Assembly (NCBI GenBank): GCA_029880285.1
Contig: JAOUOS010000012.1
Span: forward strand, 484-64,483
Length of the DNA stretch: 64,000 nt
Source: Spirochaetia bacterium
GTDB taxonomy: Bacteria; Spirochaetota; Leptospiria; Turneriellales; JAOUOS01
Direction of reading: 5' to 3'
This document shows, one piece after another, positions 3,226 through 61,492 of this stretch. Every line of letters starts with the position of its first letter. The stretch's first letter is position 1. The notes beneath the pieces were generated by a model that was not told the DNA's origin, ran no database searches, and saw only the letters and a list, made by a program, of their open reading frames with translations. Made by a program: the position numbers and the translations under genes.

Positions 3226-5067
3226 TTAATTATATTTCTCTGCCCGTTTAATCCACTTTTCTACATCTTTTTCATTTAAATCAAGAGGAAGACCTGGATG
3301 TATAATCTTTGCCGGACATTTTTCTGCGGCTTTAACAATATCTCGGTAAGGACCGCCTTTCATATCTTTTATTATAACTTGTTTATTTTCATTATAAACA
3401 AAAATATTTTTATTTATAATAATACATTCATCACAAGCAGTACATAATTCCGTTTCAATCCAAGGTTCTTCACCGCCGCCAGATGTATCTGCCGATTCTT
3501 GCGCTGCTGCAACCGCCGGCGCTGAAGATGCAGAAGGTACAGAGGTAGCCGAAACTGACACAGACGCTGTAGGCATATTACTTATTCCAGTAAGTTTCAT
3601 GGCAAGATTTCTCATTGCCAAAGTTACCGCTTCTTTCGTTTTATTTTCTATCTCGGCTGTCATTTTAGCTTTAATATCACTCACGGCCCTATCTTTTTCA
3701 TTTGCCAATGCTTCTTTTGTTTTTTGTTCAATTTCAGCTACAAATGGATTTTTAACTCCGGCTAATTGTTGAAATGTTCTCCAAAGATGAAATTTATCTG
3801 TTGTTAAAGCAACTATATTTTTAGGAACTAAATATTGCTGCATTTTATTCTGTCCGTTAAGCGCATAAATTACGGGTTTTTTTTGTTGTCTTTGTTCGTA
3901 ATCTAATGTTAAATATTTATATAAAGTAACATAACTTGATCCGGGATTTATATCTTTTACCTCTTCATATTCTTTTTCAAAACCAGATATTTGTTTTACA
4001 TAATCAGCAAAAGTAAAATTATAGGCTTCTGCTTTTGTTTCGCCAGATTCAGATACATACTGAAATCTAACGCTTGGCGAAGGATTTTCAATATCAGGAT
4101 TCATTTCTATATCAAGGCATTTTACAAAATCAGCATGTTTATCAGGATCATAAACAAGATGTGTAAAGGCTCTGGAACGTAACAGCAACATTGACTTTTC
4201 TTTAATTTCATCTTCACTTTTCCCTTCGGGAGAGTAAATTGAAAAGAGTGCCGGCCTTGTCGAATTAATACCAGAAGAAATGCCATTTTTTAATCCGTCT
4301 GGATGAGCCAATGAACCTTGTAACACGAAAATTTTTCTAAGTGAAACTCCCATAAAACCCAAATCAGGATTAAGCTTTAATACAGCCGCTCTGCCTGTTT
4401 CATTAGATTCTGCGTCAATAATTGTTTTTTGAAGAATTGCAGTTTTTATGGGTCTACCTGCAGATACAAGTTTTATTATATCACCTAAATCATTTTCACC
4501 GGCAGTTCCTTCTGCAGTAACAATAAATGGAGTCAAAAATGATAGTTCTTCATTATTCATCTTCTTCCAGTTAAAATCTTTAAAAAATTTATCATGTATA
4601 CTTTCATCATAGGCGGCTTTAACTTCTAAACTGCCTATTCTATACTGTTTTATAAAATCTATATTTTCTGCCGCGTGTTTATCATAACCGTTTATTATTT
4701 CTTGAACATTATTTTTTAGTTCAGAAAAAACAGGCACCGGAGGTGAATCTGAATACATTTTGGCAAATTTACTTAATGAATTATATGCCACTTTAATTCT
4801 TTTAAGTCTGTTTTCTGGTATTGATCTTTTATCATCACCCTTAGATAAAACTGAAGCCAGCAATTTTTCATCAATTGTATTTTTAGTAAAATCTCCCAGC
4901 GCTTTTTTTAATTTTTTTTCATCTTTATGCTCTTCGCGATAATAATTTTCGGTATCTATAATATTTTTAAGTTTTAAAGATGTTTCATTCAGCTTTTCGG
5001 CTATACTGGCACAATGTTCTTTCCAGCTTTCGCCAGCTGTTTTTTTTACATAATCTTTTATTGACAT
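3226..5067 (-). CDS. Unassigned 613-aa protein with C-terminal single-cluster ferredoxin-like domain, co-oriented with korAB
   Basis: The C-terminus reads CTACDEC...KCPAKIIHPG (CxxCxxC...CP), preceded by an S/A/V-rich linker. It starts 33 nt downstream of korB on the same strand. Confidence 0.6.
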   Translation of the reverse strand: MSIKDYVKKTAGESWKEHCASIAEKLNETSLKLKNIIDTENYYREEHKDEKKLKKALGDFTKNTIDEKLLASVLSKGDDKRSIPENRLKRIKVAYNSLSKFAKMYSDSPPVPVFSELKNNVQEIINGYDKHAAENIDFIKQYRIGSLEVKAAYDESIHDKFFKDFNWKKMNNEELSFLTPFIVTAEGTAGENDLGDIIKLVSAGRPIKTAILQKTIIDAESNETGRAAVLKLNPDLGFMGVSLRKIFVLQGSLAHPDGLKNGISSGINSTRPALFSIYSPEGKSEDEIKEKSMLLLRSRAFTHLVYDPDKHADFVKCLDIEMNPDIENPSPSVRFQYVSESGETKAEAYNFTFADYVKQISGFEKEYEEVKDINPGSSYVTLYKYLTLDYEQRQQKKPVIYALNGQNKMQQYLVPKNIVALTTDKFHLWRTFQQLAGVKNPFVAEIEQKTKEALANEKDRAVSDIKAKMTAEIENKTKEAVTLAMRNLAMKLTGISNMPTASVSVSATSVPSASSAPAVAAAQESADTSGGGEEPWIETELCTACDECIIINKNIFVYNENKQVIIKDMKGGPYRDIVKAAEKCPAKIIHPGLPLDLNEKDVEKWIKRAEKYN

Positions 5068-5100
5068 AATAATCTCCGGGGTTTAGATTTTAAAATTCAA

Positions 5101-6063
5101 TTATATGGTATACTTATCCAGTTCCTCATTTAACCTTGCTACTTTTTCTTCAGGTGTTATCTTATCAGCAGTAGCATGTAATTCTTCATTGTAAACAGGA
5201 ATACTAGGGTTATAATACAAAAGACCCAGCGGACTGCTAGTTTCTTCCATCATTGCTATTTTTTTGGCTGCTTCTAAATCTTTGCAGTTATGATCGATAA
5301 TAGGAGCCATTTTTTCAAATACTTTATCAACAGGAATACCATTTTCATCTCGCAAGAATGTAAAAGGAGCTTTTACTTTACCATCCTGCCCAAAAGCCTG
5401 AGGAGAAAATATGGGACACTTTTGCAGAATTCTTACAAATGCAGTTCCCTTATGATGCCAGGCCGCTCTTATGGTTTTATCAAGGTGACCAGGGGTCCAG
5501 CTTGCTGTTTGTGCCAAAAAAGAAACATTGGTAATACCGAGCATTACGCTTAAAACATTCATTTCTTTTAATACCGATCCATGAGGAGTTGTATTTGTCG
5601 AGGTCCCACAATGAGTTGTTGGCGAAACCTGATTTTTCGTTAGCGCATAAATTTCATTATCAAAAACCAATACTGTCATATCGGTATTATATCTCATGCC
5701 GTGAAGCCAATGACCGCCGCCAATACTAAAACAGTCGCCGTCACCCATAGTGACCAGTACTTTTAAATCGGGCCGGCCAAGTTTAACACCTGTTGCAATG
5801 GTCATCGCGCGTCCGTGAATTCCGTGAAAACCGTAAGTGTTTAGATAATGAGGAAAACGGCTTGAACAACCAATACCTGACACGGCTACTACCGATTCAG
5901 GAGCCACTTGCTCGTCTCTAAACATTTTTTGAACCGACGATAAAATTCCAAAATCGCCGCAGCCTTTACACCATCTAGGTACATCACCCTCATAGTCTTC
6001 TAGAGTATAATTTTTTATTTCACACTGCTCTTCAATATATTCTTCTAATTGTAATGTTTCCAT
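5101..6063 (-). CDS. korB: 2-oxoacid (2-oxoglutarate):ferredoxin oxidoreductase beta subunit (TPP-binding)
   Basis: WCKGCGDFGIL and the GDGD TPP motif (VTMGDGDCFSIGGGH). It lies 17 nt downstream of the alpha subunit. Confidence 0.85.
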   Translation of the reverse strand: METLQLEEYIEEQCEIKNYTLEDYEGDVPRWCKGCGDFGILSSVQKMFRDEQVAPESVVAVSGIGCSSRFPHYLNTYGFHGIHGRAMTIATGVKLGRPDLKVLVTMGDGDCFSIGGGHWLHGMRYNTDMTVLVFDNEIYALTKNQVSPTTHCGTSTNTTPHGSVLKEMNVLSVMLGITNVSFLAQTASWTPGHLDKTIRAAWHHKGTAFVRILQKCPIFSPQAFGQDGKVKAPFTFLRDENGIPVDKVFEKMAPIIDHNCKDLEAAKKIAMMEETSSPLGLLYYNPSIPVYNEELHATADKITPEEKVARLNEELDKYTI

Positions 6064-6080
6064 AATATGTACTCCTTTAA

Positions 6081-7940
6081 TTATTTTGATTTTTGCGCTA
6101 ACTTTTTACTCAACGCGTCGTAAATTTCCATTGGCATTAACGGTCTGCCATAAACTCTTGAAAAACAATCAACATCAACAAGAGTATGCGATCGCAACAG
6201 CATAGATAATTGGCTGTAGCGTCTTGTATCTTCGTTTACCATTGGATCATCCCAATCGTCACTGTAATTTAATTCGACAACCATTACTTTTTTATATTTT
6301 GAAAAAATTTCTTTAAGCCCGGGAGGAAAAGGCGATAAAAACTGTAGACTAACCGAACCTACTTTTTTACCTTCTTTTCTTAAATTATCAACGGCTTCGT
6401 CAATGGGACCTTTTATACTTCCCCAACTTACAACCAGCAAGTCGCCTTCTTTATCGCCGTAAACATCAGGTTTTTTCAATGATTTCTGTAAAGTCATAAG
6501 CTTGCGACTTCTCATTCTGTGAGCTTTCTGGTTCATATCGGGATCGTGATTTACCTTGCCCTCAGGAGAATGATTTAATGAAGTTGTTCTGCACATACCC
6601 CCCGGCTGGCCAGGTATAATTCTTCTTGAAAGACCGGTTTCTTCATCCCAATCATATGGCTTAGTTCCCGGAGGTATAGGACTCGTATCTATAGGCAGAG
6701 GGAACGATTCTGTGCTTAGCTTTGGTCTTGGATAAAGCTGTGTACCTGTCGCAAGGTTTGCATCTGTTAAAACAATAACAAGCATTCTAAATTCTTCGGC
6801 AATTTTTCTGGCCGTAATCATAACATGGTAGCATTCTTCAATGTCTGTAGGGGCCATAATAACTTTGGGCGCGTCTCCCGGAGTTGAAAATAAAGAGGAC
6901 AATAAATCACCCTGCTCAATTTTTGTAGGTAAACCGGTGCTAGGCCCGCCTCTTTGAACATCTACAACCACCAGTGGAGTTTCTGTCATTACAGTTAATC
7001 CTAAAAATTCTGTTTTTAGCGCCATGCCAGGACCCGATGTAATGGTAAGTGTTGGCCGCCCTGCATAATAACTGCCAAGAGCAACGCCAATGGCAGCTAT
7101 TTCATCTTCTGCCTGGTGAACAATACCGCCCATTCTACCAAAATATTCTGACAAAGCATGCGTTGCCGAAGTCGCCGGAGTAATAGGATACATTGAACAA
7201 TGTTCAAACCCAGCCGCTACCGCACCAAGAGCCACGGCTTCGTTACCGTTCATAGCAACCATAGGCACCTTAAAAGGCGTTGATTCTATAACATATTGAA
7301 AATCAATTGTTTCTTTTGCGAGTTCATAACCTAGGGTTAAAAGGGCAACGTTGTTGTCTTGTATTTCTTTTGATTTTTTCTTGAAAATCGATCGAATTTC
7401 ATCGGCTAAGATATCCATATCTCTTGTATACAAATAACCAAGCATACCAAGAGCCACCATATTCTTACCTCTTTGAGGATTATCAATTAAGGTCATGGTT
7501 TTTTCTTCAATAGGAACCTCATATATATTGGCTCCTTTTGTTTTTAAGTCATCTAAAATTTCACGGTACTGTTTTCTTATCGTCTCATCGCTATCATTCG
7601 CCCATTTATTATCTATGATAACTACAACATCATTGGCAAGCATCTTTCCCTTGATTCTTGATAAAAGATTCATTTCATTAAAAGCAACCACGACATTGGT
7701 AAGATTTCCTCCGTTTGTAACCGGTTTTGAAGATAATCTAATTCTGTTGCCGCTTGTACTGCCCATCGTATGCGGCGGAGGCTGTATTTCAGAAGGTATA
7801 ATTTCTACTGTCCATAAACTGTTACCCATTTTGGCCGATACTTTCGCGAATGATACAGCTGCTTTCTGGGCACCCTCACCCGCGTCGCACACAAATTCTA
7901 CAATGTGTTCTTCTAGTTTAATTTTCTTAGGTTCTTTCAT
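6081..7940 (-). CDS. korA: 2-oxoacid (2-oxoglutarate):ferredoxin oxidoreductase alpha subunit (fused gamma-alpha type)
   Basis: 619 aa. The N-terminal gamma-like domain (DAGEGAQKAA) is followed by the alpha core (MNGNEAVALGAVAAG, YPITPAT). This is the two-subunit KOR architecture. Confidence 0.85.
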   Translation of the reverse strand: MKEPKKIKLEEHIVEFVCDAGEGAQKAAVSFAKVSAKMGNSLWTVEIIPSEIQPPPHTMGSTSGNRIRLSSKPVTNGGNLTNVVVAFNEMNLLSRIKGKMLANDVVVIIDNKWANDSDETIRKQYREILDDLKTKGANIYEVPIEEKTMTLIDNPQRGKNMVALGMLGYLYTRDMDILADEIRSIFKKKSKEIQDNNVALLTLGYELAKETIDFQYVIESTPFKVPMVAMNGNEAVALGAVAAGFEHCSMYPITPATSATHALSEYFGRMGGIVHQAEDEIAAIGVALGSYYAGRPTLTITSGPGMALKTEFLGLTVMTETPLVVVDVQRGGPSTGLPTKIEQGDLLSSLFSTPGDAPKVIMAPTDIEECYHVMITARKIAEEFRMLVIVLTDANLATGTQLYPRPKLSTESFPLPIDTSPIPPGTKPYDWDEETGLSRRIIPGQPGGMCRTTSLNHSPEGKVNHDPDMNQKAHRMRSRKLMTLQKSLKKPDVYGDKEGDLLVVSWGSIKGPIDEAVDNLRKEGKKVGSVSLQFLSPFPPGLKEIFSKYKKVMVVELNYSDDWDDPMVNEDTRRYSQLSMLLRSHTLVDVDCFSRVYGRPLMPMEIYDALSKKLAQKSK

Positions 7941-9241: not shown

Positions 9242-11209
9242 TTATTTAATAATCTCACCTATCTTAAAAAAAGATACTGTTTTTTGAAGATGCTCAGACT
9301 GCCCACTTAATTCTTCAGCTGTCGCGGCCAACTCTTCTGCTGATGAGGCGTTTTGCTGTGTAGCTTTATCAAGCTGACCCATGGCACTATTTATTTGACT
9401 AACGCCGCTATTTTGCTGTTCAGAAGCCGCTGTTATTTCTTGAATTAAATCTGCTGTTTTTTGTATATTTGGAACCAGTAACTCTAAAAGTTTTCCCGCT
9501 TTGTCTGCGACTTCTACGCTATCACCTGCCAATGTTCCAATTTCTTGAGCAGCTATCTGACTTCTTTCGGCGAGTTTTCTTACTTCTGATGCTACTACCG
9601 CGAATCCTTTTCCATGCTCGCCTGCTCTGGCCGCCTCAATGGCTGCATTCAATGCCAGTAAATTAGTCTGGTAGGCAATTTCTTCTATAATTGTAATTTT
9701 TTCAGCAATCTGCCTCATAGCCTGAACAGTTTCATCTACCGCCTGACCACCCTCAAAAGCATCTTTAGAGGCTTTTTGTGCAATTCCATCGGTTAATTTA
9801 GCGTTTTCTGCATTTTGTGAAATACTGGCCGACATCTCTTCAAGAGATGATGTTGTCTCTTCAACACTCGCGGCCTGCTCATTTGCCCCCTGACTCATAC
9901 TCTGCGCCGTTGAACTAAGTTCAGTTGAAGCAGAAGATACTGACTCAGCGTTATTTAATACATCTGCAATTATCTTCTTTAACTTTTCTTGCATATCACT
10001 TAAAGACTGAAGAACCTCCCCTATTTCATCTTTGCGGTTTATAATAATATTGTTTTTAAGATTACCATCTGCCATAGACTTAAAATAATTTTGAGCATTT
10101 GAAAGCGCATTAGTTATGTTTTTATTGATTATTACTGAAAAAAATAAAGCGGCCAAAATTCCCGCTATTACCGCTAGTATCGTATACCAAACTGTTTTTT
10201 CTAAATTATTAATTCGTTTATTAGTTAAATCTTCAAAAGCGGGAATAGTTTTATCGTATAAAGAAATTAAAAAGGACAAAGCCTCTGTTGCCGCATTAAA
10301 ATATACAGTCGCGCTTTTAGCTTCTTTACTAAAATCTGCATTAATAACATCATTTTCAACCATTTTAATAAAATTATTTACAGATTCTTTTGCTTTATCA
10401 TGGTCTAATTTAATTTTTTTTTCTGTCACTGACGATATCTCATATATTTTTGAAAAATTTTCATTAATAGTATTATTTAGATCTTTTATTAACACCAAAT
10501 AAGAAATAACTGTATCTCTCTGCATAACATTAATCGTGTTTTTTGCCAAAATACCTGAACCTACGGCTCTGGCTCTACCCATATATTCCATAATCCATGG
10601 TATTTTTACAGTAAATAAATCCATTAAGTAAAAGGTTGCCACTTCGGGATCCAGCGTTAAATTAGAATTATCTCCTGCTTTACCCATTAATGAATATACT
10701 TCTTCTATTAGAACACTAAATTCTTTAATCGCTATAGCCGGATCATCACCGTCTTTTACTTCGATTTTTTCAAGAATATTTTTTCTTAGCGCGTCCCATT
10801 TTACATACACATCTAGCTCTTTGCCTAATTTTTTATTGATTTTATCAACACCTTCAACAGCCTCTTGTATAAGCTTTTTCTTATCACGCATTTTTTCTTT
10901 GAAACTATTATCTCCGTTTAAATAAGCGCTGGTCATACCCCTATACTGAGGTATATGCTCAAAAAGTTTTCTAATAGGTTTAATATATTCAACACCAAGA
11001 AGCTCTTTTTTCGCGAAATCAATACCAAGCTCTTTTTTTGAAGAGATCATTTCATAAGTAACCACAGCCAGAGGTATTAAAAGAATAATTGTATTTAATA
11101 AAGATTTTTGTGAAATTTTCAATCTATTCAATAAACTTATTTTTTCATTTACTGATTCTTTGATCAATTCATTCATTAGAATTCTCCTGCATTTATTATT
11201 TTCGGACAT
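9242..11209 (-). CDS. Methyl-accepting chemotaxis protein with large helical periplasmic sensor, HAMP and MCP signalling domain
   Basis: Two TM segments flank a ~300-aa sensor region. A HAMP domain follows, then the conserved hairpin [42 protein letters not shown]. Confidence 0.9.
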
Positions 11210-11365: not shown

Positions 11366-11392
11366 GGATTGAGAAAATACAGGGGGTTCAGC

Positions 11393-11800
11393 ATGTCGTT
11401 AATAAAATGGAGCAATGATTTAAGCATAAATGTACAAGAAATAGACGATCAGCATCAAAAGCTAGTAGATATGATTAATAGTCTGCATAAGGCAATGAAT
11501 GACGGTCAGTCTCAGCAGATAATCGGCAAGATTATTAAAAATATGGTTGAATACACAGAATCACATTTTCAGCTTGAAGAGAACTATTTTGAACAGTTTA
11601 ACTATGATCTTAGAGATGAACATAAAAAAGAACATGACCAATTTATTGAAAAAGCTCAAAAACTGCAAAACGATTATTTTGAGGGCAGTATAAGAATTGG
11701 TATTGAAACTATGCAATTTTTAAAAGAATGGCTTGTTGATCATATTATGGTCTCAGATAAAAAATTTGTTCAATGTTTTCATGAAAATGATATTGTATAG
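11393..11800 (+). CDS. Hemerythrin-like metal-binding protein (bacteriohemerythrin)
   Basis: WSNDLSINVQEIDDQHQKLVDMIN, HFQLEE, HKKEHDQF and WLVDHIMVSDKKF. I chose the ATG at 11393 behind the AGGGGG RBS rather than the TTG at 11369. Confidence 0.85.
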   Translation: MSLIKWSNDLSINVQEIDDQHQKLVDMINSLHKAMNDGQSQQIIGKIIKNMVEYTESHFQLEENYFEQFNYDLRDEHKKEHDQFIEKAQKLQNDYFEGSIRIGIETMQFLKEWLVDHIMVSDKKFVQCFHENDIV

Positions 11801-12025: not shown

Positions 12026-13651
12026 ATGAATTATCCTGTTTGGGTTACTGAGGTTGGCGGTAATTTTTATATCGCTCTTATTTCTATATTTCATGTATAT
12101 ATTGCTCATTTTGCCATTGGCGGCGGAATTTTTCTCGTATTAACCGAGCATTACGCTTACCGCAAAAATGACACACGGCTTTTAGATTATTTAAAATTAC
12201 ACAGTAAATTTTTTGCGCTTGTAACGCTTGTTGCCGGCGCTTTAAGCGGGGTCGGTATCTGGTTTGTCGTAAGTCTGGTAAGCCCTACGGGTATAAGCGC
12301 TTTAATTCGGGTTTATGTATGGGCATGGGCCATTGAATGGGTTCTTTTTTTCGTTGAAATTATCGCTTCTATCGCGTATTATTCTTCATGGAACACTATA
12401 AGCCGCAAGCGTCATTTAACAATCGGATGGATTTATGTTGTAACCGGAATTTTATCTTTAGCTGTCATAAACGGTATTATTACTTTTATGCTGACTCCCG
12501 GCGAGTGGATTGAAACGAAAAATATTACCGATGGTTTTTTTAACCCCACGTACAAGCCATCTTTATTTCTTAGATTTTTTATCTGCATCTCACTTGCCGG
12601 TATTTACGCCCTTTTTACGACCGTAACTTTAAAAGATAAAGAGACTCGGGCAAAGCTTCTAAGATATGCCTCAATTTGGGCAATTGTTGGCGCTTTAATG
12701 ACCATACCCGGCTTTAGATGGTATTTTAGTCTGCTTCCCGAGGGCAGCGAAGAAATGTTATTATTAGGAGGTATGCCCATCGCGCAAAACGCTTATGATA
12801 TACTTACTTTCGCGGGTGTTCTACTCATAATATTTTTGCTTGTGCCTCTTTTTATACCTAGAAAATTTCACTGGAGTCTGACAATATTAATTGCGGCTTT
12901 TGCTCTTTCTGTATTTGGGGCAGCAGAATGGATTCGTGAAACAATCCGTAGACCCTATGTTATCTATGATTATTTATACGGTAATAATTTAAGGATAGAT
13001 GAATATGAAAACGTACAAAGAAAAGGCGGCATATTAAAAAACGCGCTCTGGGTAAAAGAAAAAGATGTATTGAATATAAACGCGGGCAAAGACATCTTTA
13101 GAATTGCTTGTCGAAGCTGTCATACGCTTAACGGATATAATGCCCTTGCGCCGCCTTTTGGTAAAATTGAAGAAGAATATATTTATGCTATAATTGGCAA
13201 ACTAAAACACCTTCGCGGTAAAATGCCTCCTCTGGCGGCTACTGAAGAAGAAAAACTGATCTTAGCAAAATATCTTTATGAATCGGGCAAAAAGATTAGC
13301 CAAACAGAAAAAACAGGGCATGAAGTCTTTGAGAAAAGATGTACTTTTTGCCATACTAAAGATAAATATAACGGTTTATATGATTCTTTTGAAGGCGAAG
13401 AGCTTGAAAGCATACGCGATTCAATACCAATATTAGACGAAATGGCCGAAGAAATGGTACCCTGGTTTGGCAATGACGATGAAGCCGATTTACTCGCAAA
13501 ATATATTCATTCATGGTACTTAGAAAAAAAACCTTCTTCAAAGAAAATGGACAAAGAGAAGAAAATTGAAGAAGATGAAAATAATGATGATGACACCACA
13601 GAAGAAGAGGAGAGCGAAGAAACAGATGATTCGGAGGATGAAGAAGAATGA
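12026..13651 (+). CDS. Polytopic membrane protein (CydA-like N-terminal domain) fused to dihaem cytochrome c domain with an acidic tail
   Basis: About 8 TM helices. TM1 reads ISIFHVYIAHFAIGGG and TM3 reads WAIEWVLFFVEIIASIAYYSSW. There are two CxxCH motifs (CRSCH, CTFCH) and a C-terminal D/E-rich tail. Confidence 0.6.
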   Translation: MNYPVWVTEVGGNFYIALISIFHVYIAHFAIGGGIFLVLTEHYAYRKNDTRLLDYLKLHSKFFALVTLVAGALSGVGIWFVVSLVSPTGISALIRVYVWAWAIEWVLFFVEIIASIAYYSSWNTISRKRHLTIGWIYVVTGILSLAVINGIITFMLTPGEWIETKNITDGFFNPTYKPSLFLRFFICISLAGIYALFTTVTLKDKETRAKLLRYASIWAIVGALMTIPGFRWYFSLLPEGSEEMLLLGGMPIAQNAYDILTFAGVLLIIFLLVPLFIPRKFHWSLTILIAAFALSVFGAAEWIRETIRRPYVIYDYLYGNNLRIDEYENVQRKGGILKNALWVKEKDVLNINAGKDIFRIACRSCHTLNGYNALAPPFGKIEEEYIYAIIGKLKHLRGKMPPLAATEEEKLILAKYLYESGKKISQTEKTGHEVFEKRCTFCHTKDKYNGLYDSFEGEELESIRDSIPILDEMAEEMVPWFGNDDEADLLAKYIHSWYLEKKPSSKKMDKEKKIEEDENNDDDTTEEEESEETDDSEDEEE

Positions 13652-14769
13652 ATGCGATAATTCCCGCTCCGGACCAACTTGCTATACCGGGCCCCTTTTG
13701 GCTGTTTCAGGTTTTACTTGTATTTACTTTTTTACTGCATGTATTAACCATGAATGCCTTATTAGGCGGTTCAATCATTGCCGTAGTAAGTTATTTTCGC
13801 GGCAAGGTTGACAAAAATCATCAAAAACTGGCTAAAACCATTTATTCTTATTTACCCACCGTAATTGCGACTGCCGTATCTTTTGGCGTAGCTCCATTAC
13901 TTTTTGTACAATTAATATACGGTCAATTTTTTTACACCTCTTCAATCATCTTAGGGGGAATTTGGCTTTCTGTAGTGCTATTCATCATCTTCGCTTATTA
14001 CAGTTCCTATTTTATGAAATTTAATCATGAAAAAAAAATAAACATCGCTAAATATGTATCGTTTAGCGCGCCCATTCTTTTTCTTATTGTCGCTTCTATT
14101 TTTGCCAATAATTTATCTATTTTAGAAAAACCTTTAAAATGGTACGATTTATATTTTAAATCGATTGAGTCTGGTGAAAACCCAATGTTTCATGATACCA
14201 TAATTTATCTGCGACTAACACACGTTCTTCTAGGAGCCATCGCTTTAACCGGCATTTGGATATTTTTAATAGGATACTTTAATCGAAATAAAGATGAAAA
14301 CTGGTCGGTTTGGGCAAAATCTTACGGATTAAAAATTTTTCTTTTCTCAACATTATTAAACATTGTCGCGGGAACTTTATATCTTATGGCACAGCCGCGC
14401 GAAATTATGCTTTTATTTATGGGTAAAAATATTACTTTATCAATTCTATTTATTCTTTCATTAATTATAACAGGTTTTCTATTATATATAACATATCGCA
14501 GAAAAAATGAAAAATTTCAAAAAAAAGAAATGATTATTATAACAAGTGTATTTAGTCTTTTACTTCTTTTTATGCTTATCATTCGTCACCAGGTTCGCGC
14601 GGCTTATTTGAAAGATTATTTTAAACTGGAAGCCTTAAAATTTGAATCTCAAGACGGCATGATGGCTTTATTTTTTATTTTTTTCTTAATAGGAACCGCC
14701 GTAGTTGCTTATATTATTAAAACAGCGGTTTTTTATAAACAAAAAACTGAAAATAAAAAGAAAAATTAG
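13648..14769 (+). CDS. Polytopic membrane protein, translationally coupled partner of the preceding gene
   Basis: The start overlaps the upstream stop (ATGA). It has about 10 hydrophobic helices and no motif I recognise. Confidence 0.6.
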   Translation: MNAIIPAPDQLAIPGPFWLFQVLLVFTFLLHVLTMNALLGGSIIAVVSYFRGKVDKNHQKLAKTIYSYLPTVIATAVSFGVAPLLFVQLIYGQFFYTSSIILGGIWLSVVLFIIFAYYSSYFMKFNHEKKINIAKYVSFSAPILFLIVASIFANNLSILEKPLKWYDLYFKSIESGENPMFHDTIIYLRLTHVLLGAIALTGIWIFLIGYFNRNKDENWSVWAKSYGLKIFLFSTLLNIVAGTLYLMAQPREIMLLFMGKNITLSILFILSLIITGFLLYITYRRKNEKFQKKEMIIITSVFSLLLLFMLIIRHQVRAAYLKDYFKLEALKFESQDGMMALFFIFFLIGTAVVAYIIKTAVFYKQKTENKKKN

Positions 14770-14984
14770 GCATTGGTTTCTTTATCTTACAACCTTTTTT
14801 ATGAACTATTTTCTTATTTCTTTTCTAATTAACAGTTACTTTTCATAATTATTATATTAAAAAAGAAATTTTTTTGTTATTTTTAAGTATTTTTTGTATA
14901 ATACATGAAAGAATGACATATTATCAAAAAAATCATATCTAATATATGAGTAGATAAATTCTAAGATAAAAGGAGATTCAATTT

Positions 14985-15980
14985 ATGAGAACAAAGTTCT
15001 TAACAAAAACTACTATAATTATTTTTAGCTTCAGTATTTTTATATTTTGCAGCAAAGAAAATAAAAAAGCAAACGAATTAATGAACAAAGCAAAAGAAAC
15101 AATCGGTGTTTTACCCGATAAAATGCCGGGCGCAGAAAACGATACCCCAAAAAAAATTGAACTTGGCAAGAAACTTTATTTTGAAACTAAACTTTCAATA
15201 ACGGATACTCAGTCTTGCAATAGCTGTCATCTGGTTGACAATAAAAAAGGTGGTGTTGACAACACCCAGTTCTCACCGGGAGCCAAAGGCAGTCTAGGCG
15301 GCAGAAACGCGCCTACCGTGTTAAACGCAGGATTTCACATTGCGCAATTTTGGGATGGACGCGCCCCCGATTTAAAAGAGCAGGCTAAGGGCCCTATATT
15401 AAATCCCGTTGAAATGGCCATGCCAAATGAACAAGCTGTTATCGATAAAATATCGTCGCTAGAAGATTACCAAAGCTTATTTAAAGAGGCATATCCTGAT
15501 TCTAATAATCCAATCACATATGATAATCTTGCCGATGCCATAGCGGCATTTGAGCGCACTTTAATTACAAAAGACAGATTTGACGATTTTCAAAAAGGAG
15601 ATTTAAACGCATTGAGCGAAGATGAACTTGAAGGACTAAGTTTGTTTATGAACAAATTAGATTGTACGCAATGCCACGACGGGCCTCTTCTTGGCGGTAA
15701 CAGCTATGAAAAAATGGGCGTTGAAAAACCTTATAAAAATACCAAAGACCTAGGTAGATTTGATGTTACAAAGGAAGAAGATGACAAATATTATTTTAAA
15801 GTACCCTCTCTTAGAAACATCGCTATAACCTTTCCTTATTTTCATGATGGCGGCGCGATGAGTCTTGAAGACGCTGTTAAAACAATGGCCGATATACAGC
15901 TTAATGTAAATTTAACAAAAGAACAAATTGATAAAATTGTTAAATTTTTAAAAACTCTTACGGATAAAGAAAGATTATAA
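14985..15980 (+). CDS. ccpA: Dihaem cytochrome c peroxidase (CCP/MauG family)
   Basis: Signal peptide, CNSCH and CTQCH haem motifs, and the FWDGRA and FKVPSLRNI signatures. Confidence 0.9.
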   Translation: MRTKFLTKTTIIIFSFSIFIFCSKENKKANELMNKAKETIGVLPDKMPGAENDTPKKIELGKKLYFETKLSITDTQSCNSCHLVDNKKGGVDNTQFSPGAKGSLGGRNAPTVLNAGFHIAQFWDGRAPDLKEQAKGPILNPVEMAMPNEQAVIDKISSLEDYQSLFKEAYPDSNNPITYDNLADAIAAFERTLITKDRFDDFQKGDLNALSEDELEGLSLFMNKLDCTQCHDGPLLGGNSYEKMGVEKPYKNTKDLGRFDVTKEEDDKYYFKVPSLRNIAITFPYFHDGGAMSLEDAVKTMADIQLNVNLTKEQIDKIVKFLKTLTDKERL

Positions 15981-16134: not shown

Positions 16135-17706
16135 TTAAACCATTTCGGCTGCTTTTTTCAACATCTCTTCTTTTACCTGAAAGGTCTCGGTTTGTCTTCT
16201 TATGTTTTCATCAATTGTAAAAAATGATACAGTTAATTGAAGATGTTCTGCCTGACCGCTTAACTCTTCTGAGGTCGCGGCCAACTCTTCTGCTGCCGAG
16301 GCGCTCTGCTGTGTTACTTTATCAAGCTGACCCATCGCTGCATTTATTTGACTTACCCCGCTGTTTTGCTGTTCTGAGGCGGCTGTTATTTCTTGAATTA
16401 AATCGGCTGTTTTTTGTATACTAGGAACAATAACTTCAAGAAGTTTACCCGCTTTATCGGCTATTTCTACACTGTCGGCCGCGAGTGTTCCTATTTCTTG
16501 AGCTGCTGTTTGACTTCGTTCTGCCAGCTTTCGCACCTCAGACGCGACCACCGCAAAGCCCTTGCCATGCTCTCCCGCGCGTGCGGCCTCTATAGCCGCG
16601 TTTAAAGCAAGAAGATTTGTCTGATAGGCAATTTCTTCTATAATAGTAATCTTTTCAGCAATTTGTCTCATCGCGTTTACCGTTTCATCTACCGCTTTAC
16701 CACCCTCACCCGCGTCTTTAGAAGCTTTTTGGGCAATGCCGTCAGTTATTTTCGCGTTTTCTGTATTCTGTGAAATACTGGCCGACATCTCTTCAAGAGA
16801 CGAAGTAGTTTCTTCAACACTGGCTGCCTGCTCATTTGATCCCTGGCTCATACTCTGAGCGGTAGAACTTAACTCTGTGGCGGCGGCAGAAACTGACTCG
16901 GCATTATTTAATACATCTGAGATAATTTTTGAAAGATTGCTTTGCATATCGCTTAAAGCCTTAAGAAGCTGTCCTATTTCATCATTACTATGAACTATAA
17001 TTTTGTTTTTAAGGTTCCCGTCAGATATCAAATTAAAATAATCAATAGCTCTTTTTAAAGGTTTATTTATGCTACTTATAATATAAGTTAAAATAAGACC
17101 AAGCACTACAAGAGCAATAACGAACATTGCCCAGGTTAATGTTCTCGCCTCTGAAACAGCAGCGTCGCCTTTTTCTTGTATGGATTCATTATATTTTTCA
17201 AGTAAATCGCCTAAATTTTCCATTTTTACTTCTAATTTCTCAAACAATTCTTCAAATTTTTGCAATTTTTCTTCAATAAGCTCTTTATCTTCAGCATTCT
17301 TTAGAAAAACAATATCATTAGCGCCATCTATATACGCTTTTAACTGGGGTTTAACTTCACTAAGAGCGTTTCTTATATTAGAAGGAAGTTCAGCTTTTTC
17401 AAGTTCATTAATAGATTTATTAAAAGTCTCATCGTTTTCTTTTAGTGATTTTCTAACTTCGGCCAGCATATCCATATCGCCATGCTCCATTTCAAGAAGT
17501 CCGGCGAAAACATTACCGTAAATTGCCTCATGCATCATATCTGCATTCATTAGTGCTCGTATTAATCCTGAGTTTACAATGATTTTGTCCATCGCGTCAT
17601 CAATCTTGTTAAGACCTATATTGCCAACAGTTGTTGATATAAAAAAAATGATTCCGGTAAGCGCGCCCGTAAGCCACAACTTGGTTTTTATTTTTAAATT
17701 TTTCAT
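16135..17706 (-). CDS. Methyl-accepting chemotaxis protein, paralogue of 9242-11209 with a different sensor domain
   Basis: A four-helix-like periplasmic region is followed by HAMP. The signalling domain is nearly identical in protein sequence to the first MCP. Confidence 0.9.
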
Positions 17707-29868: not shown

Positions 29869-31080
29869 ATGAGAGAAATTCTTGTCCCAAATTTAGGGGA
29901 ATCAATTACCGAAGGAACAATTGCTTCTTGGTTTAAGAAAGAAGGTGAACCAGTATCAGCTGACGAGCCTTTAGTAGAACTTGAAACAGATAAAGTTACG
30001 GTTGAAATAAACTCTCCCGCAGAGGGAATTTTAGAAAAAATAAACAAAACCGCGGGCGAAAACGTATCAGTTAATGAGGTAATAGGCATTGTAAAAACAG
30101 GCGTTTCGGCTCAAAGTAAACCAAAAGACGACTTATCCACATCTCCTAAATCTAAAAAAGAAGAAATTAAATCAGAAGAGACTTTAATATCACCAGCTGC
30201 CAGAAGATTAGCCGAAGAAAACTCTATTGATATATCGAAAATTACCGGAACGGGTAAACACGATCAAATAAGCAAAGAAGACGTAATTTTATTTTTAGAT
30301 AAAATAAAAAAACCACCCAATGAAAATAAACCTGATATGAATAAATCTTCTGATTTTACTGCTACATCAGAAAATACCAATAAAAATGAAGAAATTATTC
30401 CCATGAGCCGGTTAAGGCAGGCTATTGCTCAAAGGCTGGTACAGGTTCAACAAACATCGGCTATTTTAACTACATTTAATGAAATTGATATGTCTGCGGT
30501 AATGAATCTTCGCGCGAAATACAAAGATGCATTTGAAAAAAAATACGGCATTAAACTTGGTTTTATGAGTTTTTTTGTAAAAGCAGTTATATACGCCTTA
30601 AAAGAATTTCCTGCGATTAACGCAGAGATAAGAAATAATAATATTGTTTATAAAAAATACTATAATATAGGAGTAGCCGTGGGCGGCCCAAAAGGATTGG
30701 TTGTTCCCGTGCTAAAAAACGCAGAAAAACTCTCTTTTGCAGATATTGAAAAAGAAATCAGCCGCTTAGCTTTAAAAGTAAAAGATTCTGCTATATCACT
30801 TTCAGAGCTGGAAGGCGGTACTTTTTCAATTACAAACGGCGGAATTTACGGCTCAATGCTTTCTACGCCCATATTAAATCCTCCCCAAAGCGCTATTTTG
30901 GGCATGCATAATATTGTGCAAAGACCTGTTGTGATTCATAATGAAATAGTCATAAGGCCCGTTATGTACGTGGCTTTATCATATGATCACCGCATTGTAG
31001 ACGGTAAAGAAGCGGTAACATTTCTTTTGCGAATAAAAGAAGCAGTTGAAGAGCCTGCAAGATTAATGCTTGAGGCATAA
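29869..31080 (+). CDS. sucB: Dihydrolipoamide acyl(succinyl)transferase E2
   Basis: Single lipoyl domain ([14 protein letters not shown]), a PSBD segment ([22 protein letters not shown]) and the catalytic DHRIVDG. Confidence 0.8.
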
Positions 31081-31083
31081 AAA

Positions 31084-32502
31084 ATGAGTTTAGAATTCGA
31101 CTTAGCAGTAATAGGAGCGGGACCAGGCGGATATACCGCCGCAATAAGAGCTTCTCAACTGGGTCTAAAAACAGCAATTATAGATAAGCGTGAAACTCTT
31201 GGGGGAACCTGTTTAAATGTGGGATGTATACCCACTAAAGCCCTTTTAGATTCATCTGAAAAATTTTATAAAGTCAATGAGAAATTATCAGTACACGGAA
31301 TTGAAGTTCCATCTGTTAAACTTGATTTTAAAAAATTAATGGATAGAAAAAATAAAATAGTTTCAGAAGTATGTCAAGGCGTTGATTTTTTAATGAAAAA
31401 AAATAAAATCACCCGCTATCACGCCGCCGCTTCATTGAAAAATTCTCAAGAAGTTGAACTTGAAATTTTAAGTGGCGAAAATAAAAATAAAAAAATAACC
31501 TTAAACGCTAAAAATATACTTCTAGCGACAGGATCGGTGCCTGTTGATATACCTTCTTTATCTGTTGATGGTAAACACATTATTACCTCTGATCATGCCG
31601 TTAACTTATCAAAAATACCAAAGAATATGATTATCGTAGGCGCCGGAGTAATAGGTCTTGAACTTGGTTCGGTATACAGCCGCTTGGGCACTAAAATAAC
31701 CGTAATAGAACTTATGCCAAGACTTTTGCCCTTTGTTGATAAACAAATCGCGGCTTTTATGCAGCGTTCATTAGAATCTCAAGGTTTTAAATTTTTCTTT
31801 GAAGAGAAAGTCACTTCGTCAGAAATAAAGCAAAATGCAGTGGTATTAAAGACAACAGATAATAGCGGTAAAGTAAAAGAATTTGAAACTGAAGTTGTTC
31901 TTACTGCCATAGGCCGAAAACCCTATACCGAAAACTTAGGTTTAGAAAATGCGGGTATTAAACTTACTCCCGCTGGAAAAATTTCAATTGATAAAAAAAC
32001 ATACCAGACAAACATTAAGGGAATATACGCCGTAGGCGATGCAGTTGAAGGCCCTATGCTGGCGCATAAAGCAGAAGAAGAAGGCATTGCCGCTGCAGAA
32101 ATTATCGCCCAAAAACCAGGTCATGTGAATTATGAAGCAATACCATCCGTTGTTTATACATCCCCTGAACTAGCGTGGGTAGGTTTGTCAGAAGAAAACT
32201 GCAAAGAAAATAACATAGAAGTAAACACAGGAACATTTTTCTTTAGAGCAAATGCGCGCGCCAAAGCCATGAATGAAGCAGACGGATTAGTAAAGGTAAT
32301 TGCTCATAAAAAAACAGACAGACTTTTGGGTGTTTTTATCGCCGGACCTCACGCCTCTGAATTAATAGCCGAGGCAGTTGTGGCTTTTGAATTCGCGGCT
32401 TCTTCTGAAGATATTGCACGTTCGGTTCACGCACACCCGACTCTTTCTGAAGCTTTGCGCGAAGCCGCCATGGCCGTCTCTAAATGGTCCATTCATAGTT
32501 AG
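31084..32502 (+). CDS. lpdA: Dihydrolipoyl dehydrogenase E3
   Basis: GAGPGGY, the redox disulfide [13 protein letters not shown], and HAHPTLSE. Confidence 0.95.
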
Positions 32503-59863: not shown

Positions 59864-61492
59864 TTGATAAATTTAATATTAACTGCCCGTCAATTCTTTT
59901 TATTTAATAAAAACGCTCGACAATTCATCTTATACGCCAAAAATCGGCCAGTGCGAAACGGCATACTGATATTAGATTTTGGTTCACAATATACCCAGTT
60001 AATAGCGCGAAAAATCAGAGAGCTTCGATTTTATGCCGAAATACATCCCTACAATTTTCCTGTTAAAGAAATTAAAAATCAACAACCGGCAGGAATTATT
60101 TTATCCGGAGGGCCCCATTCGGTTTATGAAAAAAACGCGCCTTCTGTAAATAAAGAAATATTTTCATTAAATATTCCTATTTTAGGTATTTGCTACGGAT
60201 TACAGCTTATTACTCATTTATTAGGAGGCAAGGTCAATTCATCAAAAAACAGAGAATACGGAGCGGCCCTTCTAAAAATTCAAACAGAATCAGTTTTTTT
60301 TAACAATATTAACGAAAAAACACGTGTTTGGATGAGTCATGGCGATAAAGTAATTAAGCTGCCAGCGGGATTTAAGGCAATCGCCCAAACCGATTCATCA
60401 CCTTATGCTGCCGTAATTAATATTGAAAAGAAAATAACGGGCGTTCAATTTCATCCTGAGGTACAACATACCAATAATGGTAAAACTTTTTTAAAAAACT
60501 TTTGTATTAGTTTTTGTCATTTAAAACCAAACTGGACAATGAAAAATTTCGCCAAAGAAAAAATTAAAGAAATACAAAACCAAACCGGTAATGAAAGAGT
60601 GCTTTTAGGACTATCAGGAGGCGTCGATTCTACGGTTACCGCTAAAATACTTCACGATGCCATAGGTAAAAGATTAAGCTGTGTATATGTAGATAACGGA
60701 TTAATGAGAAAAGATGAAACCGAAGCTGTTATAAAAAGATTTAAAAATAATTTTCACATACCTCTTCATGTTGTAAAAGCAGAAAAATCTTTCTTAAGTA
60801 GCTTAAAAGGCGTTACTGATCCTGAGAAAAAAAGAAAAATAATAGGAAGAGTATTCTTAGAAGAATTTAAAAAAAAGGCCGAAGAAATAGGTCATCATGA
60901 ATATTTGGGACAGGGAACGTTGTATACAGACGTAATTGAATCTGTATCGGTAAAAGGGCCTTCTGATACAATAAAATCTCATCATAACCGCGTGGCAGAA
61001 GTTCAAAAACTAATAAAGGCCGGCAAAGTAATTGAACCTTTAAAAGAATTATTTAAAGATGAAGTAAGACGGCTAGGTTTAACTTTAAAAATACCAAGAG
61101 AACTTTTATTTAGACATCCTTTTCCGGGCCCTGGACTGGCTATACGTATATTAGGTGAAATTACAAAAGAAAGGCTAAACCTTTTAAGAGAAGCTGACGC
61201 CATCTTATTAGATGAACTAAAAAAAACAGGTTATTATAAAAAAATCTGGCAGGCCTTTGTGGTTTTACTGCCGGTAAAATCTGTAGGCGTTATGGGAGAT
61301 AACCGAACTTATGAAAATGCCGTAGCCGTTAGAATGGTTGAAAGCAAAGATGGTATGACTGCAGACTTTGCTAAAGTTCCTCACGCCATTTTAGGTAAAA
61401 TATCTAATAGAATTATAAACGAAGTATCGGGAATAAACCGTGTTGTGTATGATATTTCATCAAAACCGCCGGCAACAATTGAATGGGAATAG
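59864..61492 (+). CDS. guaA: GMP synthase (glutamine-hydrolysing)
   Basis: ILILDFGSQYTQLIARKIRE, GICYGLQ and SGGVDSTV, ending ATIEWE. The first 29 codons look non-conserved, and the in-frame GTG at 59951 is a likelier start. Confidence 0.93.
   Translation: MINLILTARQFFLFNKNARQFILYAKNRPVRNGILILDFGSQYTQLIARKIRELRFYAEIHPYNFPVKEIKNQQPAGIILSGGPHSVYEKNAPSVNKEIFSLNIPILGICYGLQLITHLLGGKVNSSKNREYGAALLKIQTESVFFNNINEKTRVWMSHGDKVIKLPAGFKAIAQTDSSPYAAVINIEKKITGVQFHPEVQHTNNGKTFLKNFCISFCHLKPNWTMKNFAKEKIKEIQNQTGNERVLLGLSGGVDSTVTAKILHDAIGKRLSCVYVDNGLMRKDETEAVIKRFKNNFHIPLHVVKAEKSFLSSLKGVTDPEKKRKIIGRVFLEEFKKKAEEIGHHEYLGQGTLYTDVIESVSVKGPSDTIKSHHNRVAEVQKLIKAGKVIEPLKELFKDEVRRLGLTLKIPRELLFRHPFPGPGLAIRILGEITKERLNLLREADAILLDELKKTGYYKKIWQAFVVLLPVKSVGVMGDNRTYENAVAVRMVESKDGMTADFAKVPHAILGKISNRIINEVSGINRVVYDISSKPPATIEWE

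Follow-up and report, generated by a model that had tools for sequence, protein, structure and literature searches.

A spirochaete gene pair encoding two CydA paralogues, one fused to a dihaem cytochrome c, very probably belongs to the OR-C1 group of the cytochrome bd superfamily

Two adjoining genes, ORF1 and ORF2 (open reading frames 1 and 2), are found on the plus strand of a 64,000-nucleotide stretch of DNA from a Spirochaetia bacterium (contig JAOUOS010000012.1, positions 484 to 64,483; hereafter the window, in whose numbering all coordinates are given). ORF1 encodes a membrane protein of the CydA type that continues into a dihaem cytochrome c domain, and ORF2 encodes a second membrane protein of the same fold. 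A first-pass annotation, made from the letters of the sequence, had placed these two genes, with a gene for cytochrome c peroxidase (CCP) 215 nt downstream on the same strand, exactly where we find them. Its description of ORF1 also holds: about eight transmembrane (TM) helices (eight in the structural model), two CxxCH motifs (CRSCH and CTFCH) and a tail rich in Asp and Glu (58 % D/E). The features of the pair are as follows.

12026–13651, plus strand: ORF1 (putative OR-C1a), 541 aa; CydA-like subunit, dihaem cytochrome c domain and acidic tail
12026–12961, plus strand: ORF1 membrane domain, aa 1–312, eight TM helices in the AlphaFold2 (AF2) model
12092–12094, plus strand: H23, equivalent of CydA His19
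12335–12337, plus strand: E104, equivalent of Glu99
12356–12358, plus strand: E111, equivalent of Glu107
12938–12955, plus strand: E305-x-x-R308-x-P310, equivalent of the Glu445/Arg448 motif
13058–13300, plus strand: haem c domain 1, aa ~345–425; C362-R-S-C-H366 (13109–13123), with Met400 (13223–13225) as sixth ligand
13301–13534, plus strand: haem c domain 2, aa ~426–503; C439-T-F-C-H443 (13340–13354), with Met477 (13454–13456)
13535–13648, plus strand: acidic tail, aa 504–541, 58 % D/E, predicted to be disordered
13648–13651, plus strand: ATGA start/stop overlap of ORF1 and ORF2, read from the sequence
13648–14769, plus strand: ORF2 (putative OR-C1b), 373 aa; CydA paralogue free of haem c, nine TM helices (AF2)
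13738–13740, plus strand: ORF2 H31, invariant; equivalent of ORF1 His23 and CydA His19
14221–14223, plus strand: ORF2 H192, invariant; at the CydA His186 position
14572–14574, plus strand: ORF2 M309, invariant

The membrane domain of ORF1 is homologous to CydA, and its placement in the bd superfamily by the first-pass annotation is upheld by both sequence and fold. The Pfam family Cyt_bd_oxida_I (PF01654) matches it with 42.1 bits, above the gathering score of 26.2, and the match spans the first half of the profile (ORF1 residues 16–226 to profile positions 6–226 of 418); at least 3,176 homologues are retrieved by a search with ORF1. The AF2 model, built on 26 homologues (mean predicted local distance difference test score, pLDDT, 81.8; predicted template modelling score, pTM, 0.75), has TM helices at residues 10–46, 50–85, 87–120, 127–156, 176–199, 205–235, 251–276 and 283–307, beyond which lie a helical C-terminal domain and then a disordered tail. 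When this model is compared with the PDB using Foldseek, the nine best matches are all CydA chains (E 8e-7 to 3e-5), followed by CydB; the best is Geobacillus 5DOQ_A (E 8e-7), and the others include chains from M. smegmatis bd-II, E. coli bd-I and bd-II, M. tuberculosis and C. glutamicum. Short loops rich in Lys and Arg follow TM1 (RKND), TM3 (SRKRH), TM5 (KDKETRAK) and TM7 (PRKFH), and since these lie on the predicted cytoplasmic side, both the N-terminus and the domain beyond TM8 are predicted to be periplasmic. This topology agrees with the requirement that any domain to which haem c is covalently attached be periplasmic.

The register between ORF1 and CydA was set with phmmer to 5DOQ_A, with hhalign to E. 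coli CydA and with a family hidden Markov model (HMM) searched at maximum sensitivity using hmmsearch; the hhalign comparison of the ORF1 family with the single E. coli sequence has a probability of 12.7 % and is used for register only, not for homology. The correspondence is given below, with the residue of E. coli CydA first.

His19: His23 of ORF1, kept
Glu99: Glu104 of ORF1, kept
Glu107: Glu111 of ORF1, kept
His126: His130 of ORF1, kept
Ser140: Ser144 of ORF1, kept
Glu445-Y-G-Arg448-Q-Pro450-Trp: Glu305-T-I-Arg308-R-Pro310-Tyr of ORF1, kept
His186: Leu182 of ORF1 (L, A or T in the family), lost
Met393: no equivalent in ORF1, lost

Residues H23, E104, E111, H130, S144, E305 and R308 are invariant in all 26 aligned homologues, and the two glutamates are separated by six residues, as in the qOR2–4 and OR-C/OR-N types of the superfamily. 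The motif that follows TM8, E-x-x-R-[KR]-P-Y, is likewise invariant and aligns to residues 445–451 of the E. coli protein and to the Geobacillus equivalent. The likeness of TM1 to the His19 helix and of TM3 to the Glu99/Glu107 helix, pointed out in the first-pass annotation, is therefore confirmed by alignment; of the further CydA features that it listed for checking, His186, Met393 and the Q-loop are gone. Across 120 homologues, the His186 position is taken by Leu, Ala or Thr and followed by an invariant Arg183, and TM7 is without a conserved Met or His, hence the lack of a Met393 equivalent. The loop between TM6 and TM7, which holds the Q-loop in CydA, spans residues 236–250, 15 aa against the ~150 aa of the E. 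coli protein. Given that the His19/Glu99/Glu107/His126/Ser140/Glu445 set is kept while the haem b558 ligands and the Q-loop are lost, ORF1 retains that half of CydA which reduces oxygen, and the half that oxidises quinol has been lost.

Beyond TM8, ORF1 carries two class I cytochrome c domains in tandem. PF13442 (Cytochrome_CBB3) matches residues 351–417 with 47 bits, and the profile of the whole C-terminal domain matches cytochrome c6 and the dihaem, CcoP-type class I cytochromes. The first motif, CRSCH (residues 362–366), is a fixed feature of the family: C362, C365 and H366 do not vary among the 26 aligned homologues, and M400 and P401 are present in 120/120. The second, CTFCH (residues 439–443), occurs together with Met477 in 109 of 120; the shorter family members, of ~430 aa, carry one haem c each, and a few members carry three. 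In cbb3 oxidases, CcoP is the subunit where periplasmic cytochrome c hands over electrons, and the tandem of His/Met class I cytochrome c domains in ORF1, which is of the same kind, probably has the same electron-entry role. It differs from CcoP in being joined in one polypeptide to a catalytic subunit from an unrelated, haem-only and copper-free superfamily of oxidases. The acidic tail that ends ORF1 (38 aa, pLDDT <50) is found in none of the 119 nearest homologues; it might serve to dock basic cytochromes or to bind cations.

ORF2 has no match in Pfam or NCBIfam, and its homologues, of ~370 aa, are all annotated as 'hypothetical protein'. It is nevertheless detectable as a relative of CydA, by way of ORF1 and of its fold: a 29-member ORF2 profile aligns to the ORF1 family with an hhalign probability of 97.6 % (E 3.7e-12, 234 columns; ORF2 residues 23–282 to ORF1 residues 15–270), and the 13 best Foldseek matches of its AF2 model (pLDDT 84.1, pTM 0.83) are all CydA or CydB chains. 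Direct alignment to E. coli CydA is weak and limited to TM1–2. No similarity to E. coli CydB is seen with the ORF2 family (hhalign probability 0.5 %), and the candidate identity of ORF2 as CydB is ruled out on that score. ORF2 is thus a CydA paralogue by sequence, and CydB-like in role and fold only. The earlier description of this protein as lacking any known motif stands as regards Pfam and NCBIfam, although its kinship to CydA can be detected; the model contains nine TM helices, not the about 10 given there. An exhaustive search with the ORF2-family HMM recovers 2,736 representative clusters at 50 % identity.

The Glu99/Glu107 pair is not present in ORF2, and its loop between TM6 and TM7 is ~13 aa long, with no Q-loop. 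What the family does conserve is a set of potential haem ligands and arginines: His31, Arg189, His192, Met309 and Arg313 are found in 120/120 members and Arg317 in 117/120. The placement of His192 at the position of CydA His186 follows from three lines that agree, each of them weak alone, namely the hhalign register against ORF1, the [N/E]-P-x7-H spacing common to both, and an independent local match between the family HMM and E. coli residues 145–245, in which 'pRylH' is paired with 'vKfvH'. The histidine ligand of haem b558 that is lost from subunit a thus appears, from these alignments, to survive in subunit b. With equivalents of both His19 and His186 and an invariant Met in the family, ORF2 may bind haem of its own.

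The two genes form a conserved unit. In a survey of related loci that took one genome per GTDB species and the best 80 of at least 597 loci, an ORF2-like gene adjoins the ORF1-like gene in ~76 of 80 genomes from many phyla, and lies downstream in all but two; most of the exceptions are at contig ends. The three closest relatives (~50 % identity) keep the pair. At the junction in the window, which reads GAATGAATG, the ATG of ORF2 overlaps the TGA of ORF1 by 4 nt. The same 4-nt start/stop overlap recurs in 46 of 76 related loci, with a 1-nt overlap in 9 more, and these shared overlaps suggest that translational coupling is a trait of the family. The first-pass annotation had noted the ATGA overlap and likened it to the way CydB follows CydA; the overlap is real, but in E. 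coli 15 nt lie between cydA and cydB, without any overlap, so the analogy is loose.

A group with this architecture has been named. Murali, Gennis & Hemp (2021; bioRxiv 10.1101/2021.01.16.426971; ISME J 15:3534) divide the bd superfamily into qOR, OR-C and OR-N families. In their scheme, OR-C1a is a CydA of 8 TM helices that lacks a quinol site and is extended at its C-terminus by haem c, and OR-C1b is an adjoining CydA paralogue, born by duplication, for which 8 TM helices are stated (10.1101/2021.01.16.426971). From phylogenomics, they infer that cytochrome c donates electrons to OR-C and propose a cytochrome-c-dependent O2 reductase. The reference residues listed for OR-C1a in their Table S6 (H24, E105, E112, S145, H131, Y119, V77, W80 and F183, the last standing at the H186 position) correspond at a constant offset of −1 to H23, E104, E111, S144, H130, Y118, V76, W79 and L182 of ORF1; OR-C1b is absent from that table. 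Hosts of OR-C1a in Table S7 include Desulfovibrio vulgaris DP4, Chitinophaga pinensis, Lysinibacillus (sphaericus), Myroides, Sulfurospirillum and Hydrogenobacter, most of the OR-C1b entries there are given as 'hypothetical protein' with 0 haem c, and OR-C is already recorded in Spirochaetota in Table S3 (10.1101/2021.01.16.426971).

ORF1 and ORF2 are very probably an OR-C1a/OR-C1b pair. ORF1 has eight TM helices, no quinol site and a C-terminal CxxCH domain, retains H19, E99 and E107 and has a hydrophobic residue at H186, and it is adjoined by a CydA paralogue that lacks the Glu pair and has no haem c. The differences from the published description are that the acidic tail of ORF1 is unseen in relatives, that ORF2 is modelled with nine TM helices where the paper states eight for the b subunit, and that the pair stands here beside CCP and hemerythrin genes, unlike its relatives. 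The pair is thus of a known kind, named in 2021, and residues E305/R308 of ORF1 and His31, His192 and Met309 of ORF2 are small additions to the published table.

Set against canonical CydAB (E. coli bd-I, 6RKO and 6RX4; Geobacillus, 5DOQ), the pair shares the fold of both subunits, the active-site residues of TM1–4 and TM8 in ORF1 and the E-x-x-R-x-P-[WY] motif. It differs in that ORF1 has neither the Q-loop nor the His186 and Met393 ligands of b558, has eight TM helices where subunit I has nine and bears covalent c haems, and in that the second subunit is a recognisable CydA paralogue rather than CydB. The archaeal CydAA' (qOR4a/qOR4b) and the OR-N enzymes are similar in having two CydA paralogues that arose by gene duplication, with a 'b' subunit that keeps the His19 equivalent and is without the proton-channel Glu pair. 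However, CydAA' still oxidises quinol, whereas OR-N enzymes carry no fused haem c and share their operons with other electron-donor modules; within OR-C1, the His186 equivalent is retained by the b subunit alone.

From the homology, fold, residue conservation, predicted topology and gene-pair conservation set out above, we infer the cofactor content, the electron donor, O2 as the substrate and the formation of a heterodimer as follows. ORF1 and ORF2 would form a heterodimer of CydA-fold paralogues in which ORF2 takes the place of CydB and is translationally coupled to ORF1, and in which the quinol-oxidising half of ORF1 (Q-loop and haem b558) would have been replaced by a periplasmic domain with two His/Met c haems. 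A periplasmic cytochrome c, either soluble or anchored in the membrane, would reduce these c haems. Electrons would then pass to a pair of b/d-type haems in the TM1–4/TM8 bundle, held by His23, Glu104 and Glu305, where O2 would be reduced to water with cytoplasmic protons delivered along a path through Glu111, Ser144 and His130. Turnover would be electrogenic without proton pumping, as in cytochrome bd, and the enzyme could serve a microaerophilic spirochaete as an oxidase of high affinity or as an O2 scavenger. A two-subunit OR-C1 enzyme that passes electrons from periplasmic cytochrome c to O2 is, as a whole, the best explanation of the locus and a reasonably probable one; the cytochrome c-to-O2 function, judged on its own, lies just on the probable side. 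The first-pass annotation had offered an uncharacterised, c-haem-containing O2 reductase as its second choice; that alternative fits the evidence and coincides with the published OR-C proposal.

Several points weigh against this explanation. Electron transfer between haem c and the active site would have to do without b558, and the non-covalent haems of ORF1 may be b, d or of another type. The alignment of E305 with E445 is weak in score, and it contrasts with Table S6 of Murali et al., where E445 and W441 are marked '-' for OR-C1a (10.1101/2021.01.16.426971). The AF2 models are of the ORF1 and ORF2 monomers only. Two natural fusions of an OR-C1a part (with one haem c) to an OR-C1b part were found, P0475 (798 aa), which looks clean, and P0504 (807 aa), in which an Arg-rich stretch at 385–445 suggests frameshift read-through; both are singletons and make thin evidence for a complex, and with one of them apparently frameshifted we reject them as proof and keep them as weak support. 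As the earlier annotation stated, fusions of bd-superfamily proteins to haem c have been surveyed and not characterised biochemically: OR-C was named from phylogenomics, and we found no biochemical study of any OR-C enzyme, the literature consisting of phylogenomic mentions and of later papers that cite the classification. Lastly, many hosts of the family are nominal anaerobes (Desulfobacterota, Geobacter, KSB1), so the oxidant could be other than O2 or the role one of pure detoxification.

The conserved ligands of ORF2 leave room for two further readings. In the first, which extends the OR-C1 scheme and which we regard as tentative, the three-haem chain of CydA is split over the two subunits, with one or more haems in ORF2 bound via His31, His192 and Met309. 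Such a complex might, on the same doubtful footing, contain two c haems and up to four b/d-type haems. If true, this would be a cofactor arrangement undescribed for any bd-superfamily enzyme, and possibly also a new electron path, from haem c to a b-subunit haem and on to the a-subunit active site. In the second reading, which is very unlikely, the pair has no oxidase chemistry and is a non-catalytic transmembrane module for electron transfer, in which haems of both subunits would connect the pool of periplasmic cytochrome c with a partner in the membrane or the cytoplasm. An ORF2 family with three invariant potential haem ligands (H31, H192 and M309) and without Glu99/Glu107 would suit such a module, as would the up to eight c haems of some members from Desulfovibrionia, which recall the redox membrane complexes of sulfate reducers. 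The invariance of the Glu99/Glu107/Ser140/His126 set in the ORF1 family points instead to proton-consuming chemistry, and no partner gene is conserved beside the pair: when all neighbouring ORFs were clustered, no family occurred in more than 12 of the 80 loci. A separate ORF with a CxxCH motif lies within 2.5 kb in 5/80 loci, no more commonly than farther away, and a conserved neighbouring electron donor was rejected on both counts. In one close relative (locus L083), a multihaem cytochrome (Pfam Cytochrome_C554; 7285–7872, plus strand) stands directly upstream of the pair and in the same orientation; in that lineage it could serve as a dedicated donor of electrons.

On either side of the pair in the window lie the following features, of which both genes fall outside the conserved module.

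11369–11800, plus strand: bacteriohemerythrin (NCBIfam NF033749, 146.7 bits)
14770–14984, plus strand: spacer between ORF2 and ccp, AT-rich, 215 nt
14985–15980, plus strand: CCP gene, 331 aa

The product of the CCP gene is a canonical dihaem peroxidase of the bacterial CCP type, and MauG and MbnH are more distant from it than CCPs are. It matches PF03150 (CCP_MauG) with 189 bits, has CNSCH and CTQCH motifs, and scores 282 bits against the Nitrosomonas europaea CCP 1IQC compared with ~86 bits against MauG. Its N-terminus (14985–15060), MRTKFLTKTTIIIFSFSIFIFC, looks like a lipoprotein signal peptide with Cys at position 22; the protein is probably a lipoprotein and may be membrane-anchored in the periplasm.

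The favoured hypothesis of the first-pass annotation was built on this gene: the pair would oxidise quinol and hand the electrons, by way of the c haems that it carries, to the neighbouring periplasmic CCP, forming a quinol:H2O2 chain for respiration or detoxification. The arrangement of the locus lends itself to such a chain, as ccp follows on the same strand after a 215-nt spacer that holds no hairpin terminator; His/Met class I c haems are the usual type of electron donor to CCP, and the His of ORF2 at a b558-ligand position would allow a quinol-proximal haem. Against this, the Q-loop is missing from both subunits (~15 aa in ORF1 and ~13 aa in ORF2), both b558 ligands are gone from ORF1, and the strictly conserved O2-site and proton-channel residues would be superfluous if the pair were a simple electron relay. 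Promoter-like hexamers occur in the spacer (14874–14902, at about background density), and ccp has a strong Shine–Dalgarno sequence of its own. Synteny of the pair with ccp, on which the hypothesis had been staked beforehand, is not conserved: a phmmer search with the CCP of the window, even at E≤10, finds no CCP within 6 kb in any of the 80 related genomes, and none is present among the Pfam-annotated genes of the 8-kb flanks fetched for the three closest relatives. CCP as a conserved partner was rejected on this result, and its adjacency here is a local coincidence rather than a conserved partnership. With neither the features of a quinol site nor synteny with ccp, the quinol-to-CCP chain is not supported, and we consider it highly improbable.

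The neighbours are also the starting point for an alternative that leaves the architecture and the donor of the OR-C1 enzyme as proposed and changes its oxidant from O2 to H2O2, NO or another small molecule. Hemerythrin, CCP and the pair could then make up a local cluster for oxidative stress, in which the pair works in parallel to CCP from the same cytochrome c pool. Both the changed oxidant and this more specific version of it strike us as unlikely. Hemerythrin and CCP genes on the same strand, and also two genes for methyl-accepting chemotaxis proteins (MCPs), do flank the pair, and the family is common in anaerobes; canonical cytochrome bd is reported to show peroxidase- and catalase-like side activities and to tolerate NO. 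This neighbourhood is not conserved, however. As with CCP, a threshold as lax as E≤10 gave no hemerythrin homologue within 6 kb at any of the 80 loci, and hemerythrin was rejected as a conserved neighbour. Furthermore, the active-site and proton-channel residues are those of O2-reducing bd enzymes, and anaerobes also carry canonical bd oxidases for protection from O2.

OR-C is one of the three families of the bd superfamily, and its hosts span dozens of phyla. Were its members indeed cytochrome-c-dependent, copper-free and high-affinity O2 reductases, the respiratory potential read from the genomes of many 'anaerobes' would change. The function is testable in cultured hosts given by Murali et al., such as Desulfovibrio vulgaris or Hydrogenobacter. 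To this, the present locus adds a well-modelled example from a spirochaete, a negative result for the link with CCP, a map of CydA residues for each subunit and the hint of haem in ORF2.

The window as a whole is ordinary chromosome with a G+C content of ~32 %, and also encodes FliD, several MCPs, an OprB-type porin, aconitase and GAF-SpoIIE phosphatases. A 2-oxoacid:ferredoxin oxidoreductase and the E2/E3 components of a 2-oxoacid dehydrogenase are both encoded within the 64 kb (3226–7940, minus strand, and 29869–32502, plus strand); the former enzyme is typical of anaerobes and the latter of aerobes. Taken with hemerythrin and CCP, their presence fits a microoxic lifestyle, and the host is probably microaerophilic or facultative. 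Two MCP genes (9242–11209 and 16135–17706, both on the minus strand) bracket the block of hemerythrin, OR-C1 and CCP genes, and their C-terminal signalling domains are nearly identical; this paired arrangement may hint at a neighbourhood concerned with aerotaxis or redox-taxis. The housekeeping protein GuaA (59864–61492) has 72 % identity to proteins from Leptospiraceae and Turneriella metagenome-assembled genomes, which marks the host as an uncultured, Leptospirales-like spirochaete. The nearest relatives of ORF1, by contrast, are KSB1-type and unnamed metagenomic sequences at ~50 % identity, and by this comparison the OR-C1 pair may have been acquired laterally.

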